Source of the DNA: a bacterium | GTDB taxonomy: Bacteria > Patescibacteriota > Patescibacteriia > JAHIZJ01 | Reading direction: 5' to 3' | Length of the DNA stretch: 64,000 nt | Assembly: GCA_030699685.1 (NCBI GenBank) | Contig: JAUYLJ010000068.1 | Coordinates: 8,947-72,946 of the forward strand | In this document: positions 4,683-14,685 of the stretch, piece after piece | Numbering within the stretch: the stretch's first letter is position 1 | How the letters are laid out: every line of letters starts with the position of its first letter | Translations under genes and position numbers: made by a program | The notes under the pieces: generated by a model | Databases searched by the model: none | Seen by the model: the letters and a program-made list of their open reading frames with translations, nothing else | What the model was told of the DNA's origin: nothing

Positions 4683-5545
4683 CGCAGTTCCGCTAGGCGC
4701 TCCCGTCCGGACAGGTCGCGGGAAAACGATACAAGCCAGTCGGGCAAGATCGTCTTGCTCAATTCTTGGAATTGCCGAGTCCGGCGCGGATCGATTTCCA
4801 GCAATACGGCGGGCCTGTCCTGTCGTTGGCGGAGCTCACGGAGAAAGCGTGAAAACAGAGACAAGCCGTTTAGGCCGCCGTCAAGTGCCAGCCGGGGTTC
4901 GTGATGGATTGACTCTTCTTGATGAATTTCCTCGGGCGTGAGATAGGGAAGATTGGCCACAATCAGGTCCAGCTCTTCGCTCTTGAGGGGCGATAACAGA
5001 TCTCCCGCTACCAGCGAGCATCTGTTGAGAAGCCCAAAGCGCTGCAAATTGGTCCGCGCGACCGATAGTGCGTCCCCGGACAGGTCGACGGCCCAACCCC
5101 GGACGGACGGCCGCTCACTCAGAAGTGTGGCAATCAAGCAGCCTGATCCGGTGCCGATATCAGCGATTCTGGCAGGCGAGTGGCGACTGATGCGTTTCAA
5201 TGTCAACTCTATCAAAGCCTCAGAGTCAGGCCGGGGGATGAGGACCGATGGTGAGACCCGGAACATTCTCCCATAAAACTCTTTTTGGCCGGTCAGGTAG
5301 GCAATCGGCTCTCCCTGGATTCGACGCTGAAGCAGCTGCATAAACTCTTGCTCGCTGGCTTGATTGAGCTTGGCCTGTGGTTCCCGCCAGAGCGCCGCAC
5401 TTGATTTCTGCGTCGCGTGCCTGAGGATCAGTTCAGCGTCCAGGGTGGCACTGCTTGAATCGATCCGGTTGAGGTGATTGGCCGCGCTCTGGAAGGCTTT
5501 ACGCACCGTCAGCGGCATTGTGCAGTGCGTTAATAATCGGCTCAA
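4649..5545 (-). CDS. prmC: release-factor glutamine N5-methyltransferase (PrmC/HemK)
   Basis: Class I SAM MTase motifs (ADIGTGSGC). The substrate-binding motif reads NLPY rather than NPPY. Immediately downstream of prfA, as in the classic prfA-prmC operon. Confidence 0.75.
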
Positions 5546-6542
5546 TGCGTCCGTCGAGAATTTCGATCAAATTCGACCAGCTTTTTTTTATCCGATGATC
5601 GGTAATTCTATCTTGGGGGAAGTTATAGGTTCGGATCTTTTCCGACCGGTCACCAGTGCCGATTTGCTTTTTTCTGTCATCGGATCGTTCTTTTCTCTGT
5701 CTTTCTTCCTCTATATCAAGCAGTCGCGAACGGAGCACCTGGAGAGCCCGTTCTCGGTTTTGGATTTGTGAACGTTCATCTTGGCATTGGACCACCAGGC
5801 CGGTCGGCTTGTGTCTGATTCTAATGGCTGAATACGTGGTATTGACGCTTTGGCCGCCGTTTCCCTGAGCAGTCGATGTTTGGATTTCCAGGTCTTCGGG
5901 TCGGATCTCGATTTCCTTTTCTTCCGCTTCCGGCAGCACGGCGACGCTGGCCGCCGAGGTGTGAACCCGTCCAGATTTTTCCGTTTCCGGTATTCGTTGT
6001 ACCCGGTGTACGCCGCTTTCGTATTTCAGCTGGCTGTAAACATTTTGACCGCGGATTTCAAAAATGATTTCCTTAAACCCGCCCAAGCCAGTCCGGTTCG
6101 CCGAGATGAGGTGCGTAGACCAGTTTTTTTCCTCAGCAAAGCGAGAATACATACGAAAAAGATCGGCCGCAAAAAGGGTGGCTTCGTCACCGCCGGTACC
6201 GGCTCGGACTTCAATGATAATGTTTTTCTGGTCTCGCGGATCCTTCGGCTGTTCCATGGCCCTCAATTGGGAACCGACGCGTTCTTTTTCCTGGCTGAGT
6301 TTGGCTGATTCAGATTCGGCCAGTGCGACCAATTCCTGATCATTGTCGCTTTGAATGGTGTCTTTCAGTTCCTGCAGCTGGTGTTCAAGCTGCCGCTGAC
6401 GTTCATACAGGTCGCGTAATTCTGTCAGCCGCGCGTACTCTTGAGACGCGCGCCGCAATTCATCAGGATGGCTGTTGATTTCCCGCGACTGCAGCTGCTT
6501 TTCCAGCGACTGAATTGCCGCCAATAGTTGGTCTTCCTTCAT
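5499..6542 (-). CDS. prfA: peptide chain release factor 1
   Basis: GGQ motif ([41 protein letters not shown]). The tripeptide recognition region reads [26 protein letters not shown], which is RF1-type but with PET in place of the usual PAT/PVT. Confidence 0.9.
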
Positions 6543-9492: not shown

Positions 9493-9636
9493 GAAGCGGC
9501 GGGGTAAATACAGCGGCATTGCACCTGCGTCACACTCAGTAAAGTAATAATAATGAAGGCAAGGTGCCGCTAGGAAAAAGGTGGTGGCGAAGCTCTCAAG
9601 CGCTTATTGAAAAAGTGATATCTTCACCCTTCTGGT

Positions 9637-9722
9637 GGGTCGGTACCCAAGCGGTCAACGGGGGCAGACTGTAAATCTGCTGGCCTCGGCCTTCGTAGGT
9701 TCGAATCCTACCCGGCCCACCA
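9637..9722 (+). tRNA. tRNA-Tyr (anticodon GTA) with long variable arm
   Basis: Acceptor GGGTCGG/CCGGCCC, anticodon stem-loop GCAGA-CTGTAAA-TCTGC, long variable arm TGGCCTCGGCCTTC, T-arm GTAGGTTCGAATCCTAC, discriminator A plus CCA. Confidence 0.8.
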
Positions 9723-9990
9723 GAGGGGTGTCTCAGGCAGACTGCCACCGCCACATCATTTTCTTTAATAATAATGGAGGCGGGGTGCCGCTAGAAAGCG
9801 GCATAAATCTGTTGGCTTCGGCCTTCGCGGCTTCTTCCGTATCGATGGCGAAATCCCGCTAGCATTTCAAAAATAAATTGTATAGCGCAGGGGGATCATA
9901 CCAGGTTCACCAGTTAGAAAATGTATTTGTTGGCTCGCCAGCCGATTTTAAGTGCGAAATGAAACGATTGGGAATAAATATAGAAACGTG
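9719..9990 (+). repeat. direct repeat copy 1 (tRNA-Tyr 3' end/downstream motif plus ~200 bp), repeated at 14424..14640
   Basis: The CCAGAGGGGTGT segment is followed by GCGGCATAAATCTG(T/C)TGGC(T/C)TCGGCCTTCGCGG..CGTATCGATGGCGAAATC...CCAGG(T/C)TCACCAGTTAGAAAA...TTGGCTCGCCAGCCGATTTTAAG...AATAAATATAGAAACGTGGAC. Both copies share this, and copy 1 has a ~55 bp extra insert. Confidence 0.8.
9770..9870 (+). pseudogene. degenerate partial tRNA-Tyr-like segment (anticodon arm and variable arm remnant) inside the direct repeat
   Basis: GCGGCATAAATCTGTTGGCTTCGGCCTTCGCGG parallels GGCAGACTGTAAATCTGCTGGCCTCGGCCTTCGTAGG of the intact tRNA-Tyr. The spacer motif TAATAATAATG(A/G)AGGC(A/G)(A/G)GGTGCCGCTAG is also duplicated, at ~9555 and ~9765. 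Confidence 0.5.
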
Positions 9991-10094
9991 GACACATAAA
10001 TTCTTGGTAATTAGTTTGAAACGTAACCAAAATAGATTGTGATAAAGAGTTTGAATAAATTGTCGTTTCGATGGTTAAATCGGTATTCTACTTC

Positions 10095-10355
10095 TTTACC
10101 TTAAAAAATCCGCGCGCGCAAAAAGAGAATAGGCAATTTTTCTGCTTGGCTTCGTGCTGACGCACGGGCGGTGGAGCTTCAATAAGGACGAGGCAAAACA
10201 AAAACTATTTTTGCGGGAGAAGGTGATTTTGCTTTGCCTCAACTCTTTTTTGTTGGCAGGATTTTTTTATCCGCCGCGCAGGAGGGTGCGGGAGGAATGC
10301 GCGGCAGATTATTTGCCGTTTGCTTTACGAAAACGGCCATTTATGTCAGGGTAAT
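10095..10355 (+). promoter_or_regulatory. left arm of a ~200-250 bp inverted repeat, immediately upstream of the TruD-like gene; contains a near-palindromic core
   Basis: Reverse complement of 14140..14345 with one ~95 bp indel. The shared core is GGAGGGTGCGGGAGGAATGCGCGGCAGATTATTTGCCGTTTGCTTTACGAAAACGGC(C/T)ATTTATGTCAGGGTA, which includes CGGCAGATTATTTGCCG. Confidence 0.75.
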
Positions 10356-10358
10356 ACC

Positions 10359-11408
10359 ATGACACGCTCAAAACAGTGCAACTATAAACTTAAATGCATC
10401 AATGATGATTTTCAAGTGACGGAAGTACCCTTGATGCCTACTTTAACTTTAAAGCGACCGCGTCGCTTTACTTATATTTGGATTCAAAAAACTGGATTCA
10501 CTACTTTTGATATTATCGAGCAGATAAAAGATTTTTTTAAGTTATCGTTCAGCGATGTATCCAGTCAGGGATTAAAAGACGAGGATGCTATCACAGAGCA
10601 ACTCATCTCAATAAAGAAAATTATAAAAAATGACGACATCATAGCTTTTAATAAGAAAAGCAAGTCCAAAAAGAATTTTTGCCATATTAAGCATATCGTT
10701 GGTTATGGAAATGAGGCTGTAAAGAAAAGAATGCTCCACGGAAATTCGTTTAGAATTGTCATTAGAAATCTGGATAAAACAATCTCCAATACTTTTTTAA
10801 GTTATATCTCTAGCCAAAGACATTATTATTTTATCAACTACTATGATAATCAACGATTTGGAATGCCTAGCGGTCCATACAATACGCATTTGATTGGTAG
10901 GGCTATCGTAGAAAATAAATGGAAGGACGCCTATAAACATCTCAAAAATTCAAATAACTCTCTTCCTAAAATTACAACGAAACTTGAAAGTACCTCCGAC
11001 TTCAAGGAGATATTTCGATTGCTGAACCCAAGGAAGGTTTCTTTTTTTGTTTCTGCTTACAATAGTTTTCTTTGGAATAGTCATGCATCTTCTGTCGTCA
11101 GAAAATATACTAAAAGCAAAAAACATATTTTCGAAAATGTCGGATATCTGTACATACCAACAGCATCTTCATTTCTGTGTCCAAATATCTGCGAGGTGGA
11201 TGGCTATGAATTTCTTGCAAAGAACTTCACAATCGCACTAAAGAAAAATAGTAGAAACCTTGTTGTTGCAACTACGATATATGCTGATGATTTAGAAAAA
11301 GACGGGCTACATAAGGGAAGGTGGAAATTAACTCTTTCTTTTTTCTTGCCAACTGGTAGTTATGCCACCATGATAGTTAAGCAAATCTTCTTGAGATTAA
11401 GTAAATAG
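10359..11408 (+). CDS. truD: TruD-family tRNA pseudouridine synthase
   Basis: N-terminal KCINDDFQVTEV matches KANPEDFVVVE of TruD. Catalytic-Asp motif QGLKDEDAITEQ (compare GxKDxHAVTxQ). INYYDNQRFG (compare NYFGxQRFG). C-terminal LPTGSYATMIVKQIF (compare LPAGSFATSVVRELI). Start moved to ATG 10359 because the track start lies inside the inverted repeat. The gene is markedly AT-rich relative to its flanks. Confidence 0.8.
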   Translation: MTRSKQCNYKLKCINDDFQVTEVPLMPTLTLKRPRRFTYIWIQKTGFTTFDIIEQIKDFFKLSFSDVSSQGLKDEDAITEQLISIKKIIKNDDIIAFNKKSKSKKNFCHIKHIVGYGNEAVKKRMLHGNSFRIVIRNLDKTISNTFLSYISSQRHYYFINYYDNQRFGMPSGPYNTHLIGRAIVENKWKDAYKHLKNSNNSLPKITTKLESTSDFKEIFRLLNPRKVSFFVSAYNSFLWNSHASSVVRKYTKSKKHIFENVGYLYIPTASSFLCPNICEVDGYEFLAKNFTIALKKNSRNLVVATTIYADDLEKDGLHKGRWKLTLSFFLPTGSYATMIVKQIFLRLSK

Positions 11409-11419
11409 ATTCTTATCTT

Positions 11420-12037
11420 ATGAATAAAAATATTGAAATAGAAATACGAGGACCATTGTCGAAAGAAAAATTCAATAAACTAGAGAGTTTTCTTAACGAA
11501 AAAGGTAGGAAGTTAATTGAAAAAAACAGAGTTTTAATTGACTACTCAACTTTTTTAGATGGGGGTATTGAAGATAGAAAAAAAGATATACGCCTGCGCG
11601 TCACTAACGGTGTCCCTGAAATAATAGTGAAAATCGGACAATGGGGCGGGACAGATCAACGAAAAGAGCTTTCGGTTTTAACTAATCCAAGCAGTTTTGA
11701 CACACTCGTCGAAATTTTTGGCGAACTTGGGCTGAAAAAAGGGATGCTATGCGTACGCAGGAGTAAAATCTATGAATATCAAGGAATAGAATTTGCGCTG
11801 GTTGAGGTTCCCAATCATAGCTATTATTACGAGGCAGAAAAAATGGCACATGAAGGCGAAAATCCTGAACAAATAACAAAGGACATAACAAAGGTATGTC
11901 GAGCTTTGCAACTTGAGATATTCGACAAAAAAACATTTTTTGAATATATCCAACGACTGAACAAAGAAGCAAATGAGGTATTTGACTACACTACTTCATT
12001 TAGGCCGAATTACTTCAAAAATAGATTTGGGCTATAA
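11420..12037 (+). CDS. CYTH-domain (triphosphate tunnel metalloenzyme / class IV adenylyl cyclase-like) protein
   Basis: N-terminal EIEIRG..., alternating charged beta-strand pattern (DIRLRV, EIIVKIGQWGG, FALVEVPN), about 200 aa. AT-rich and co-directional with truD (12 bp gap). Confidence 0.5.
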   Translation: MNKNIEIEIRGPLSKEKFNKLESFLNEKGRKLIEKNRVLIDYSTFLDGGIEDRKKDIRLRVTNGVPEIIVKIGQWGGTDQRKELSVLTNPSSFDTLVEIFGELGLKKGMLCVRRSKIYEYQGIEFALVEVPNHSYYYEAEKMAHEGENPEQITKDITKVCRALQLEIFDKKTFFEYIQRLNKEANEVFDYTTSFRPNYFKNRFGL

Positions 12038-12095
12038 CTCAAAAGAAAAAACGGGTGGAGAGTTTTCTGAACTCGCCACCCGTGTGTGTTTGCCG

Positions 12096-12341
12096 TTATC
12101 CATGATGACCCCTCACAAAGACTTTCCCTCGGATTATCTTATGGGCAGGCCTGTTATGAATAATGGCGTGTCGGGCGAACTTTTGACCGCAACTGGGGCA
12201 CTTGAGAGCACCATTTGTGCAATCCGACATGATCATATCGGCGTAACACTTTATGAGCGTCCCCCCGCCCTCTTTTTTGTAGCGGTAAAGCAGACCTGTG
12301 CATTTAGCGCAATGCACGGCAATCGTGTATGTTTTTCCCAC
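12096..12341 (-). CDS. small zinc-ribbon protein, likely last gene of the minus-strand operon
   Basis: CAKCTG...CPSCGQ (CxxC-x-CxxC). GTG start preceded by AAGGAG 7 nt upstream, and 12 bp after the PreA-like stop. Confidence 0.45.
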   Translation of the reverse strand: MGKTYTIAVHCAKCTGLLYRYKKEGGGTLIKCYADMIMSDCTNGALKCPSCGQKFARHAIIHNRPAHKIIRGKVFVRGHHG

Positions 12342-12353
12342 GTTCTTCTCCTT

Positions 12354-13499
12354 TCAGAAAGATGCCTTTATGGCATCAAATTTGGGAGGACATACTCCGA
12401 CACACGCGTTGCAAGAAATGCAGTTGTCGGCGATTACAGCGAGCGGCTTCCTGTTAGCACGACGAAGCATCGTCAGGGCATCAAAAGCGCAGGATTGAAC
12501 GCAGATTCCGCAACCAGTGCACTTCTCTTCGATTACGACCGGACATGGTGACGAAAAACGATGTTCGCGTGTCTTTTCAAGTGTGAGTCCGATCAGATCC
12601 TCAATCGAGTCGTACTGAGGATTCTCCGCGAGAAACCTCCCCAGTCCTGCCGTTATGCGCTTGAAGACAACCGGACCCTTCAGTGCTGGCGCGGTGTAAA
12701 GTTGCACTGCTCTTGCGCCTGCCATCAACATCTGGACAACGTCGTCAGCCGTGAAGATTCCACCACATCCGACGATCGGAATGGTAAGATTCTGCGAAAG
12801 TTGATGTACACACCACAGAGCAATCGGGAAAATCGCTTTTCCAGACACTCCGCCGCCGCCACCCTTAATACCGAGCTTGGGTTTGGCGGTTTTGGTGTCG
12901 ATCAACATTCCGGGACCGATACTATTCGTGCAGACGATGGCGTCAGCGCCTAACTCTTGGGCGCGCTGAGCCATAGAGAGTAGCAGGTTCGAGTATGACA
13001 ACTTGATCCAGATGGGCGTCTTTGTAACGCCCCGCACCTTCTTCATTAGTTGTTCCAGATGAAGCTCGTCAACATTCAAGTTGCCGTGCAGTGCGCCTGA
13101 GTGCGAGCAGGAAATGTTGATCTCGTAGGCATCAACATCAAGCTCGTCAAAGGTCTGGATCAAATAGCAACAACTCTCGAGGTCGCGACCAGAAAGAGAA
13201 ACGATGATCGGACAGCCAGCGTCTTGCACATGGCGCACTCCACTGTCTCGCCACTCTGTCCACGGTTTCTCGTTTCCCCATTCGCAGTTAAGCATGTTGT
13301 CTTGTCCGAAAACCGCGTAACGCGGGACGGTAATTCTCGAACGCTCCGGCGGAACGCGTTGCTTGAGCGAACGGGTGACTATCCCCGAACAGCCGTATGG
13401 TTGAGCTCTCATGAAGAACTCTGGCGTTTCGGTAATGTATCCTGATGCCAACAAGAGCGGTGTCTGGAGACTTACACTTCCTACTTGCGTCCTGAGCAT
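12354..13499 (-). CDS. dihydropyrimidine dehydrogenase subunit PreA-like / DHODH-family flavoprotein with C-terminal 2x[4Fe-4S] ferredoxin domain
   Basis: TIM-barrel DHOD/DPD motifs: active-site EINISCSHSG (compare ELNLSCPHG of DPD/PreA), GIKGGGGGVSGKAIFPIAL, VGCGGIFTADDVVQMLMAGARAVQLYTA. C-terminal CTGCGICVQSC...CISCNACVGVCP. No PreT partner is visible. Confidence 0.7.
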   Translation of the reverse strand: MLRTQVGSVSLQTPLLLASGYITETPEFFMRAQPYGCSGIVTRSLKQRVPPERSRITVPRYAVFGQDNMLNCEWGNEKPWTEWRDSGVRHVQDAGCPIIVSLSGRDLESCCYLIQTFDELDVDAYEINISCSHSGALHGNLNVDELHLEQLMKKVRGVTKTPIWIKLSYSNLLLSMAQRAQELGADAIVCTNSIGPGMLIDTKTAKPKLGIKGGGGGVSGKAIFPIALWCVHQLSQNLTIPIVGCGGIFTADDVVQMLMAGARAVQLYTAPALKGPVVFKRITAGLGRFLAENPQYDSIEDLIGLTLEKTREHRFSSPCPVVIEEKCTGCGICVQSCAFDALTMLRRANRKPLAVIADNCISCNACVGVCPPKFDAIKASF

Positions 13500-13501
13500 G
13501 G

Positions 13502-14071
13502 CTATCCTCCTTTCTGTAGATGTGGCGCTAAAATCGCGAGCACTTCCTTAAACACCATGCGTTCTGTCGCTTCGGAGATTTCAACCACCGAGGTAAACAG
13601 TGATCTTTGCCGCAGGATTGTCCTGATCTCGTCATCGGCTGCCGCAACTCTTTTTTCTATCTCTGCAGAGCTTTCTGTCTTTCGTATGATAGCAAGCCTT
13701 TTGTGAAGCAGAGGTAGTTCAGAGGTAACGAAACCGATAGTGATGACTGCAGGATTGATTCTGAGCGCTTCCGAAACATTGTTCGGGTGCAACTCAGTCA
13801 ATCTGATATCTGTGGTTGGAAACAAATCCTTCCCCCTAAGGCCATAGCGATGGCCAAAGAGGTCTTGAACCAACACCAATTCACCAATATCAGCCCTCCG
13901 ATTGAACTCAGAAACTGAAACAGGGATTCTGTTTCCTCTACCCTGTTCGTCTGGTCGCAGGGGGCGGGTAGTAAACCATGTCAGTTCCTGAATGTATGGG
14001 TGAAGCTGCAATAGCCGTTCCTTGACGTATCCCTTACCGATTCCGGAAGGGCCGCTGAAAGCGATTATCAT
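13502..14071 (-). CDS. divergent guanylate-kinase-like P-loop nucleoside monophosphate kinase
   Basis: P-loop IAFSGPSGIGKGY and FTTRPLRPDEQGRGNRIPVSVSEF resemble Gmk (GPSGVGKGT; TTRxPRxGExxGxDYxF). The conserved GMP-contacting Tyr context is altered. Stop abuts the PreA-like start (operon). Confidence 0.6.
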   Translation of the reverse strand: MIIAFSGPSGIGKGYVKERLLQLHPYIQELTWFTTRPLRPDEQGRGNRIPVSVSEFNRRADIGELVLVQDLFGHRYGLRGKDLFPTTDIRLTELHPNNVSEALRINPAVITIGFVTSELPLLHKRLAIIRKTESSAEIEKRVAAADDEIRTILRQRSLFTSVVEISEATERMVFKEVLAILAPHLQKGG

Positions 14072-14139
14072 CGTACCCCTCCTTTCGTTCGTTTGTGAAA
14101 GAACTTTTCCTAATTCTTAGGAGCATCCTAAGAATTATA

Positions 14140-14345
14140 TTACCCTGACATAAATAGCCGTTTTCGTAAAGCAAACGGCAAATAATCTGCCGCGCATTCC
14201 TCCCGCACCCTCCTGATTGAAGCTCCGCCGCCAGCGTGAAGCCGAGCAGAAAAATTGCCTATTCTTTTTTTGTTTTTGCGCGCGCCGATTTTATCCTTAA
14301 AGGAAAGACAATTTTTCTGCGAGGCAGTGTCATTTGGCAGCACGG
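14140..14345 (-). promoter_or_regulatory. right arm of the inverted repeat, immediately upstream of the Gmk-like/PreA-like operon
   Basis: Reverse complement of the 10095..10355 core, including the CGGCAGATTATTTGCCG near-palindrome. The 66-67 aa ORFs the track places in both arms share an identical 23-aa C-terminus simply because of the repeat. Confidence 0.75.
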
Positions 14346-14423
14346 TAGCGGGGCTGAGTGAATTGGATTTTTTCAGAAATTTCTGCTAAAATGGTTTCTA
14401 ACGTGGTTGCAAGGCCACACCAG

Positions 14424-14640
14424 AGGGGTGTTCACTCACTCTAACGCGGCATAAATCTGCTGGCCTCGGCCTTCGCGGGTTCTTCCGTATCGATGGCGAA
14501 ATCTCGTTAACATTTCGAACATAAGTTGTATAGTGCAGGGGAATCCTACCAGGCTCACCAGTTAGAAAAAATGTCTTTGTTGGCTCGCCAGCCGATTTTA
14601 AGCGCACAACGAAACCATTGGCAATAAATATAGAAACGTG
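14424..14640 (+). repeat. direct repeat copy 2 (att-like; begins with CACACCAGAGGGGTGT resembling the tRNA-Tyr 3' end plus downstream)
   Basis: See copy 1. About 85-90% identity by eye over ~200 bp. Confidence 0.8.
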
Positions 14641-14685
14641 GACGCACCATTCTTAAATAATTAATTAAACACTTAATAAAACATC

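Follow-up and report, generated by a model that had tools for sequence, protein, structure and literature searches.

The question raised by a 64,000-nucleotide stretch of a Patescibacteriota genome (NCBI GenBank assembly GCA_030699685.1, contig JAUYLJ010000068.1, positions 8,947 to 72,946 of the forward strand; hereafter the window, in whose coordinates all positions are given) is why nearly identical inverted arms should stand immediately before two convergent operons. A first-pass annotation had read the arms as a duplicated regulatory region, a shared promoter, operator or riboswitch-like leader driving both operons. Our analysis leads to a different answer: the arms are probably degenerate copies of a dispersed repeat, here called Y, and the fossil of a Patescibacteria gene-cassette carrier linked to a large serine recombinase (LSR). 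The Y family as a whole is apparently an undescribed mobile element that is abundant in Patescibacteria.

The inverted repeat itself is real. Its core is a pair of 78-nt segments (10279-10356 and 14138-14215) that are 99% complementary, and the likeness is extended by the segments 10119-10162/14229-14272 (89% identity), 10167-10188/14211-14232 (91%) and 10105-10129/14268-14292 (88%), the outer repeat beyond the core coming to about 84 nt at ~88% identity. A 40-nt probe from the core, allowed up to three mismatches, found only the two arm sites in the 64 kb and none in 100 shuffles. The indel between the arms, earlier put at ~95 bp, is a 90-nt deletion in the right arm, positions 10189-10278 of the left arm being without counterpart there. 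The left arm ends 2 nt before the ATG of a TruD-like gene at 10359 and the right arm 66 nt before that of a gmk-like gene at 14071, so that the spacing of 15-70 bp proposed for both arms holds for the right one and not for the left. The gene content and inward orientation between the arms are as the annotation had described them, and the open reading frames of 66 and 67 codons in the arms are, as it had supposed, by-products of the repeat. It was also correct that no transposase lies between the arms; neither there nor elsewhere in the window was a recombinase or transposase found, and a tblastn search for the LSR discussed below gave no match at 1e-6.

To what the arms belong became apparent from a comparison of the window with five related loci (L003, L007, L014, L015 and L044; L numbers denote such loci throughout), which have in common two hairpins with compensating stem sequences. 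A search pattern made from the two loops, GGAC N10-14 AAACTATTTT N52-81 GGGTSYGGGRRR, matched at least 120 metagenome contigs and no viral contigs; among the matches listed, cassette genes adjoin the pattern only in L100 and L170. A profile (nhmmer) of 84 non-redundant copies of Y, all drawn from loci without the cassette, matched the window at the two arms only. The relevant features are:

10095-10356, plus strand: left arm, a 5'-truncated Y copy (profile positions 215-413 of 476), from the nhmmer match at 10121-10321 (E=6.9e-22) and the inverted-repeat boundaries
14138-14417, minus strand: right arm, a Y copy that keeps its 5' tip intact but is deleted internally (profile positions 57-291 and 380-418), from nhmmer matches at 14424-14212 (E=1.5e-6) and, for the 3' piece, 14211-14169 (E=0.027)
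10190-10240, plus strand: P4, a long hairpin with stem strands GAGGCAAAACAAAA / TTTTGCTTTGCCTC and conserved loop AACTATTTTTGCGGG, lying inside the 90 nt absent from the right arm and defined from family alignment A4
10271-10326, plus strand: P5, a GC-rich hairpin with stem strands CCGCCGCGC / GCGCGGCAG, a purine-rich loop of 19 nt and a T-rich tail, defined by stem covariation and a terminator-like call at 10301-10319

P5 is regarded as terminator-like because a T-rich tail follows the GC-rich hairpin. The arms thus form an inverted pair, a plus-strand copy followed after 3.8 kb by a minus-strand copy, neither of which has the full set of helices P1-P5 together with the 5' tip. The left arm lacks profile positions 1-214 and keeps a remnant of P3 and the 3' side of P1, the P4 and P5 hairpins and a promoter-like 3' end. 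The right arm lacks positions 292-379; it aligns with the family helices P1-P3, P4 and the 5' strand of P5 being gone, and its family sequence reaches outward to 14417, with no counterpart on the left.

The first-pass annotation had held that its reading would fall if the arms proved to be terminal inverted repeats of a known insertion-sequence or MITE family present at many other loci without these genes, and this is in essence what we observe: they belong to a repeat family found at no fewer than 120 loci that lack the cassette genes. A duplicated cis-regulatory region, combining a promoter with an operator or riboswitch-like leader and co-regulating the two convergent operons, is accordingly an improbable explanation of the arms, in spite of their ending just before both operons in the same orientation and of the contrast between the inner 78 nt (99% identity) and the sequence outside (about 88%). 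The 30 genes that we identified downstream of Y encode ABC transporters, PPDK, ribonucleotide reductase, a class I tRNA synthetase, UDP-glucose dehydrogenase and others, with no Pfam family in more than two of them, and the neighbors at the 3' end of Y are co-directional in 49 cases and convergent in 57, the repeat facing gene 3' ends as often as 5' ends. These unrelated neighbors and balanced orientations exclude a dedicated leader, riboswitch or operator: Y has the covarying structure of such elements and does not consistently precede a particular group of genes in the same orientation.

The palindrome CGGCAGATTATTTGCCG (10302-10318), proposed as the shared operator, is window-specific. The closest cassette loci, L003, L013, L015 and L051, read GCGGCGGATTCTTTTTGTTTTTG at this place, and the palindrome is the degenerate 3' strand of the family's P5 terminator hairpin together with its T tract. 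Folding of the sequence is indeed more stable than that of shuffled sequences (z=-2.9), a point in favor of such a leader, and the folding and covariation checks that the annotation had suggested do reveal a conserved covarying structure; this structure is, however, a property of the Y family and not of the cassette. The two arms share no common structured leader, since P4 and half of P5 are missing from the right arm and the 5' half from the left. Moreover, ~10 nt separate a -10-like box from the start of the TruD-like gene, which lacks a Shine-Dalgarno sequence; this places the structured part upstream of the likely transcription start. A 30-nt promoter-like block, TTTACAAAAAGCGGAATTGGTGGTAT, does occur on either side of the cassette in L007, L014, L015, L025 and L100, and of the duplicated regulatory region envisaged earlier a duplicate promoter in the innermost ~40 nt is plausible but weak, while the dedicated operator, riboswitch or leader fails. 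Most genomes with the cassette lack the repeat. Rfam returned nothing but tRNAs, whether for the window at gathering thresholds, for the arm at E<=10 or for six loci with full copies at E<=0.1.

A full Y is ~400 nt long, with seven helices backed by compensatory changes and a terminator-like hairpin at its 3' end. Its 5' half contains five helices (alignment A5: 95.5% of cells paired and 15 of 27 pairs changed on both sides, with 0 of 500 shuffles as high and 46-63% of cells paired when the 3' partner was shifted by 1-3 columns as a control), and its 3' half consists of the long hairpin P4, the GC-rich P5 with its purine-rich loop, and a T tract (alignment A4: 97.4% of cells paired and 12 of 13 pairs compensatory; for P4 by itself, 97.8% and 8 of 9), all these values being flattered by the derivation of the structures from the same two alignments. 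Repeated independent swaps of stem sequences are difficult to account for unless selection acted on one strand, and the frequency of G-U pairs in the sense orientation (at one pair UG 40, CG 24 and UA 15 times) suggests that folding takes place in the sense strand. For a full copy the folding energy is -168.5 kcal/mol against -133.7 for shuffles (z=-5.6). A group I intron was considered for this tRNA-linked structure and dropped, as Y lies outside the tRNAs and matched no intron model. The first ~45 nt of Y hold an outward-facing promoter (TTGAAA or TTGGAA, a spacer of 16-17 nt, and TGnTAnAAT) in 59 of 99 distinct copies, as against 1 of 99 in each of two controls; its third -10 position alone varies freely. 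In the window this promoter is degenerate (TTGCAA).

Pairs such as that in the window are the rule where Y is seen more than once. Among 62 loci with two or more profile matches, about 55 have a plus-strand copy followed by a convergent minus-strand copy 1.7-9.4 kb away, and the arms within one locus are 95-100% identical. The bracketed cargo varies from locus to locus, comprising for example a C5 methylase with an HNH nuclease, an ECF sigma factor with HtrA, a NUDIX protein, or a surface protein of 1,195 aa. Many contigs end inside Y, as expected of a real genomic repeat. In L012-L018, in L030 and in many of L051-L170, contig ends often fall within Y or at most a few hundred bases from the gmk-like gene, which makes this family a frequent source of broken assemblies in Patescibacteria metagenomes.

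Beside Y there is frequently a gene for a protein of 500-540 aa with Resolvase, Recombinase and Zn_ribbon_recom domains, i.e. an LSR. It adjoins 24 of the 90 Y copies with enough flanking sequence and was found in 28 related loci as well as in L178; its family numbers at least 7,889 clusters at E<=1e-30, the named members coming from Parcubacteria, Yanofskybacteria and Paceibacterota. Wherever coverage is good, the body of the LSR gene is enclosed in a second near-perfect inverted repeat of 70-165 nt, here called X, which abuts Y and holds the last ~49 codons of the gene (L163, L099, L142, L105, L077, L103, L127, L154, L129, L093 and L178, the copies in L178 lying at 9660-9804 and 11389-11533). 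The argument of the first-pass annotation that the want of a transposase between the arms speaks against a composite transposon does not carry beyond the window, given that related loci bear the LSR beside the same repeat. Because this repeat brackets many different cassettes next to an LSR, we regard the arms as mainly the remains of a mobile element and not as a dedicated switch. In L093 (712-9707) three repeat-bounded segments lie side by side, a first cargo within Y-like arms, the recombinase within X arms and a second cargo within Y arms; one recombinase can therefore lie between two bracketed cassettes.

The nature of the Y-linked enzyme also bears on the idea that the arms are terminal inverted repeats of a DDE-type composite transposon or a miniature inverted-repeat transposable element moved by the transposase of an insertion sequence. 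The repeat is dispersed, and in L003, the closest cassette relative (PreA 92% identical), the cassette lies between two rve-family transposase genes (5306-6265 and 10424-11212), which would be candidates for the source of such an enzyme. This explanation is nonetheless very improbable, as no short target-site duplication is seen, the enzyme associated with Y is a serine recombinase, and the rve genes go with separate inverted repeats of 25 nt. With short inverted repeats of their own, observed for one of the two genes, the L003 transposases were rejected as the mobilizing enzyme. L003 also has a stray 3' fragment of Y at 4961-5104, directed away from the cassette.

In 11 cases the LSR gene is directed at Y and in 13 it faces away, the two arrangements differing by an inversion of the gene body between the X copies that leaves the reading frame intact in both. 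Taken with the inverted repeats and the serine recombinase, which together make up the anatomy of the Hin, Gin and Pin systems, with the 95-100% identity of arms within a locus, which implies ongoing exchange between them, and with the persistence of the 78-nt near-identical core in the window, this could suggest that recombination between the Y arms flips the five-gene cassette in the manner of a phase-variation or flip-flop switch. For the window we consider this unlikely: both candidate promoters lie within the arms and point inward, so that a flip would leave expression unchanged; there is no recombinase in the window and no pair of isomers was found; and the differing deletions and 12% divergence outside the core indicate that homogenization has ceased.

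As X includes the last codons of the LSR gene, an mRNA initiated at the outward promoter of Y would begin with a leader that is complementary to the 3' end of the same molecule. It is conceivable, though we hold it to be rather doubtful, that Y is a ~400-nt structured RNA and the working part of a new class of serine-recombinase element, transcribed from the neighboring tRNA or recombinase gene and ending at its own terminator. Such an RNA might, with the tip promoter and with X, which would make the recombinase gene invertible and give rise to the complementary leader, control the production of the recombinase or be a cofactor in site choice, and the doubled inverted site might let the element flip between isomers like the yeast 2-micron plasmid.

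How these elements are joined to the chromosome is seen at the 5' boundary of Y, which is sharp (...GGTG|TNTTTATTGTACC, also given as ...GGTG|TNTTTATTGTACCAAG.TNGAACCTATTT) and set in varied flanks. The sequence preceding the tip is X, or a tRNA and its terminator, or some other hairpin of the terminator type with its T run. In L163, L099 and L142 a short core is common to the flank|Y, X|Y and X|tRNA joints, the tRNA being antisense from its 3' end. The fullest case is L178, on a 426-kb contig of GCA_964646765.1, with the order APH gene | Y(+) | three cargo genes | Y(-) | X(-) | recombinase | X(+) | tRNA-Tyr(-) and the hexamer CTGGTG at X|tRNA-Tyr, X|Y and flank|Y. Such a pattern would be expected if an X|Y site recombined with a chromosomal site at the 3' end of a tRNA gene, and we infer that step from it.

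The window holds the counterpart of these joints. Its unit stands directly after tRNA-Thr and tRNA-Tyr genes, and direct repeats flank the whole of it, neither of which had been remarked on before. The features concerned are:

14418-14423, plus strand: junction core CACCAG, formed by the terminal bases of tRNA-Tyr, directly adjoining the right arm at its 5' tip and attL-like; reverse complement ...ACACCCCTCTGGTG|TGGCCTTGCAACC, the same core as at the L178 joints
9637-9722, plus strand: intact tRNA-Tyr(GTA) (ARAGORN, Rfam), the presumed attachment gene to the left of the island
9718-10031, plus strand: left direct-repeat copy, made up of the 3' end of tRNA-Tyr and the intergenic region after it, in which lies a pseudo tRNA-Tyr 3' half (repeat comparison)
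14418-14681, plus strand: right direct-repeat copy, ending at the start of a FecR-family gene (repeat comparison)

On the minus strand the right-arm joint reads ...ACACCCCTCTGGTG|TGGCCTTGCAACCACGTTAGAAACC. Its right part is the tip of Y, and its left part is the antisense of the terminal CACCAG of tRNA-Tyr together with the bases that follow the intact tRNA-Tyr (9718-9731). The joint, ...CTCTGGTG|TGGCC, has the shared core expected of an LSR element, and it is the predicted partner of the joints in L178. On the left, the intact tRNA-Tyr has the orientation predicted by the model. The place where the recombinase module would be expected (9723-10094) is occupied by a second tRNA-Tyr downstream region and then by the truncated left arm, which suggests that the element has lost this module and the left Y its outer half.

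The direct repeats (9795-10031 and 14443-14681) are 80-89% identical, and each copy includes a pseudo tRNA-Tyr 3' half, from the anticodon loop to CACCAG, with a 56-nt insert in the T arm (9803-9913 and 14452-14561). The four tRNA-Tyr-derived pieces, namely the intact gene, the two pseudo halves and the CACCAG at 14418, suggest repeated events at this gene. The duplication of the flank might stem from a single homologous crossover with incoming DNA bearing the same flank, or from an earlier duplication in tandem of the tRNA-Tyr unit. The latter is hinted at by a 32-nt block that precedes tRNA-Tyr (9545-9576, TAATAATAATGRAGGC..GGTGCCGCTAG) and recurs 221 nt downstream at 9766-9797 with 88% identity.

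Intact members of the family are organized as flank | Y-> cargo <-Y | <-X [LSR gene] X-> | tRNA or terminator. The variable cargo lies between a pair of inward-facing Y copies, with the LSR gene beside one of them, and X|Y would serve as an attP-like site recombining with a chromosomal site at the 3' end of a tRNA or after a terminator; the joints X|Y, X|tRNA-3'-end and flank|Y with their common core (of the CTGGTG/GGAG type) are such as this recombination would yield. The cargo in the window is a five-gene module that occurs without Y in most Patescibacteria, and the window copy, having no recombinase, is best seen as a fossil, presumably an immobilized remnant. Its present-day role is likely limited, the inner ~40 nt perhaps supplying a similar weak promoter to both operons and the left-arm terminator perhaps blocking read-through from outside.

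Several points weigh against this reading of the arms as relics of an LSR-linked carrier. The internal inverted X|Y copy, and with it the bracketing by two Y copies, goes beyond a simple attP x attB integration, and direct repeats of 260-310 nt are not the product of a serine recombinase and need an extra event. An empty site, sought through homologs of the flanking FecR gene, was not found, the relatives having other neighbors, no Y and no common intergenic sequence. No circular form was observed, by methods that could not show one, and there were no inversion isomers among 178 loci, the lone mixed-strand pair (L105/L155) being due to a repeat of L105 itself. Some cargo genes, such as those for ribonucleotide reductase and an aminoacyl-tRNA synthetase, are housekeeping-like, and some Y copies may just adjoin core genes. 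The counts of Y refer to contigs and loci. Lastly, a consensus promoter scan of the arms flagged no sigma-70-like site, which counts against the promoter assignment made from weak hexamers.

The closest known kind of element is the LSR integrative element or transposon, represented by phiC31- and Bxb1-type integrases and by TnpX of Tn4451 and TndX of Tn5397. As in these, an enzyme with Resolvase, Recombinase and zinc-ribbon domains lies at the element edge, next to the joint between element and host, and the joints of the Y family have a short common core and no target duplications, none having been seen at the Y tips. Unlike them, the Y element has a second, inverted element site inside it, with the cargo within inverted repeats of ~400 nt and the recombinase gene within repeats of ~150 nt; its arm is a large covarying non-coding structure, and its targets are tRNA 3' ends or terminator tails and not sites inside genes. 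With serine-invertase switches (Hin, Gin, Cin, Pin/PinQ and the invertons) it shares inverted repeats around a segment beside a serine recombinase, and the occurrence of the body in both orientations. Those switches, however, use small invertases and sites of 26-30 bp and alter expression, whereas the Y element has an LSR and repeats of 70-400 nt, and inversion of its cargo would keep the promoters. An analogy may also be drawn with the yeast 2-micron plasmid, a eukaryotic element with its own origin, the tyrosine recombinase FLP and two 599-bp inverted repeats: the putative circular form of the Y element would likewise be split by two long inverted repeats with recombinase sites, one segment encoding the recombinase. 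No replication function or circular form was seen for the Y element, the latter with methods that could not show circles.

The nearest ecological analogs are the tycheposons of Prochlorococcus, cargo elements that target tRNA genes in streamlined genomes, 474 of 501 having tyrosine recombinases (bioRxiv 10.1101/2020.12.28.424599). Both show small cargo beside tRNA genes, partial tRNA copies, degenerate remnants and streamlined hosts with few classical mobile elements. The Y elements differ in having an LSR, and in long inverted arms and a structured non-coding module that the tycheposon paper does not describe. In the IS110 and IS1111 families, bridge or seeker RNAs work with DEDD-type recombinases, the RNA pairing with target and donor DNA (PMC11208160, PMC11187229). 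The Y elements resemble them in combining a recombinase gene with a conserved structured non-coding region at the element end and differ in that the enzyme is a serine recombinase and not of the DEDD type, and in that no pairing of this sort was seen, no search aimed at it having been made. Large serine recombinases are known to read DNA through protein domains. The enclosure of cargo and recombinase gene each within long inverted repeats that meet at a joint, the covarying arm, the outward tip promoter and the preference for tRNA 3' ends or terminator tails appear to be new. We found no description of this architecture in the literature searched, of which coverage was incomplete, an earlier description being possible.

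Patescibacteria make up a large share of bacterial diversity and have tiny genomes thought to be poor in classical mobile elements. The Y elements point to an abundant vehicle for gene cassettes in this group, which would help account for its patchy gene content, and the repeats would account for recurrent assembly breaks in its metagenomes. They also supply a set of serine recombinases with defined natural targets at tRNA ends and add a large covarying non-coding structure without an Rfam counterpart. For annotation they call for caution, in that a conserved inverted repeat before two operons need not regulate them.

The cargo in the window consists of five genes:

10359-11408, plus strand: TruD-like pseudouridine synthase (Pfam PF01142, E=8.9e-42)
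11420-12037, plus strand: CYTH-domain protein (Pfam PF01928, E=1.3e-5)
12096-12341, minus strand: zinc-ribbon protein of 81 aa (weak zf-LITAF-like match; kept in 35+ loci)
12354-13499, minus strand: DHOD-fold flavoprotein with two 4Fe-4S clusters, PreA-like (Pfam PF01180, E=8.8e-41, and Fer4 domains)
13502-14071, minus strand: guanylate-kinase-like P-loop kinase (TIGR03263, E=1.7e-14, under the curated cut-off)

Relatives of the PreA-like protein at 58-92% identity number in the hundreds, and all are from Patescibacteria. The convergent five-gene module is found in 39 genome loci from Paceibacteria to Saccharibacteria, in differing neighborhoods, and its gene order is conserved across Patescibacteria (loci L012-L050). 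The five proteins gave no defense-system match in PADLOC. Among the cassette loci an inverted repeat joins the two upstream regions only in the window, L003, L007, L013 and L018; the sensitive Y profile detects Y in about 7 of 41 distinct cassette loci, and L012, with a PreA 90% identical, has none. This patchiness marks Y as an addition to the cassette and not a conserved regulator; the cassette is old and the arms are no part of it. Traces of the LSR are also seen at cassette loci: L100 has the order LSR->X->Y->gmk, and in L013 an LSR remnant adjoins the arm on the TruD side. In L007 the P5 loop is reverse-complemented between the two arms with the stem retained (about 6260-6310 against 10190-10240), a small inversion within the repeat. 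The two halves of the cassette in the window differ sharply in G+C content, about 0.30-0.39 against 0.47-0.54.

There remains the innermost part of the arms:

10319-10356, plus strand: promoter-like inner end of the left arm, TTTGCT or TTTACG, a 17-nt spacer and TATGTC or CAGGGT, read from the sequence and compared with L003, L013, L051, L007 and L100

In both arms the innermost ~40 nt (10319-10356 and 14138-14175) hold weak -35- and -10-like hexamers correctly placed before the two operons. In distant loci an extended -10 likewise lies ~9 nt before the ATG, much as at the TruD-like gene, and the gmk-like gene has TATAAT just inside the arm, then a conserved hairpin and a strong Shine-Dalgarno sequence. 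The same 3' end of Y stands beside an unrelated gene in L051. That both operons may use duplicate promoters derived from this Y subtype is plausible, if weakly so. The hairpin before the gmk-like gene, AATTCTTAGGA-TGC-TCCTAAGAATT (14104-14128, minus strand), is perfect; it lies immediately beyond the right arm, after the -10-like box and before the Shine-Dalgarno sequence. Equivalent hairpins with compensating sequences, followed by a conserved GTTCTTTCACAAAC, are present in L003, L013, L100, L007, L009 and L012, making it a candidate operator or 5'-untranslated-region element of the cassette itself.

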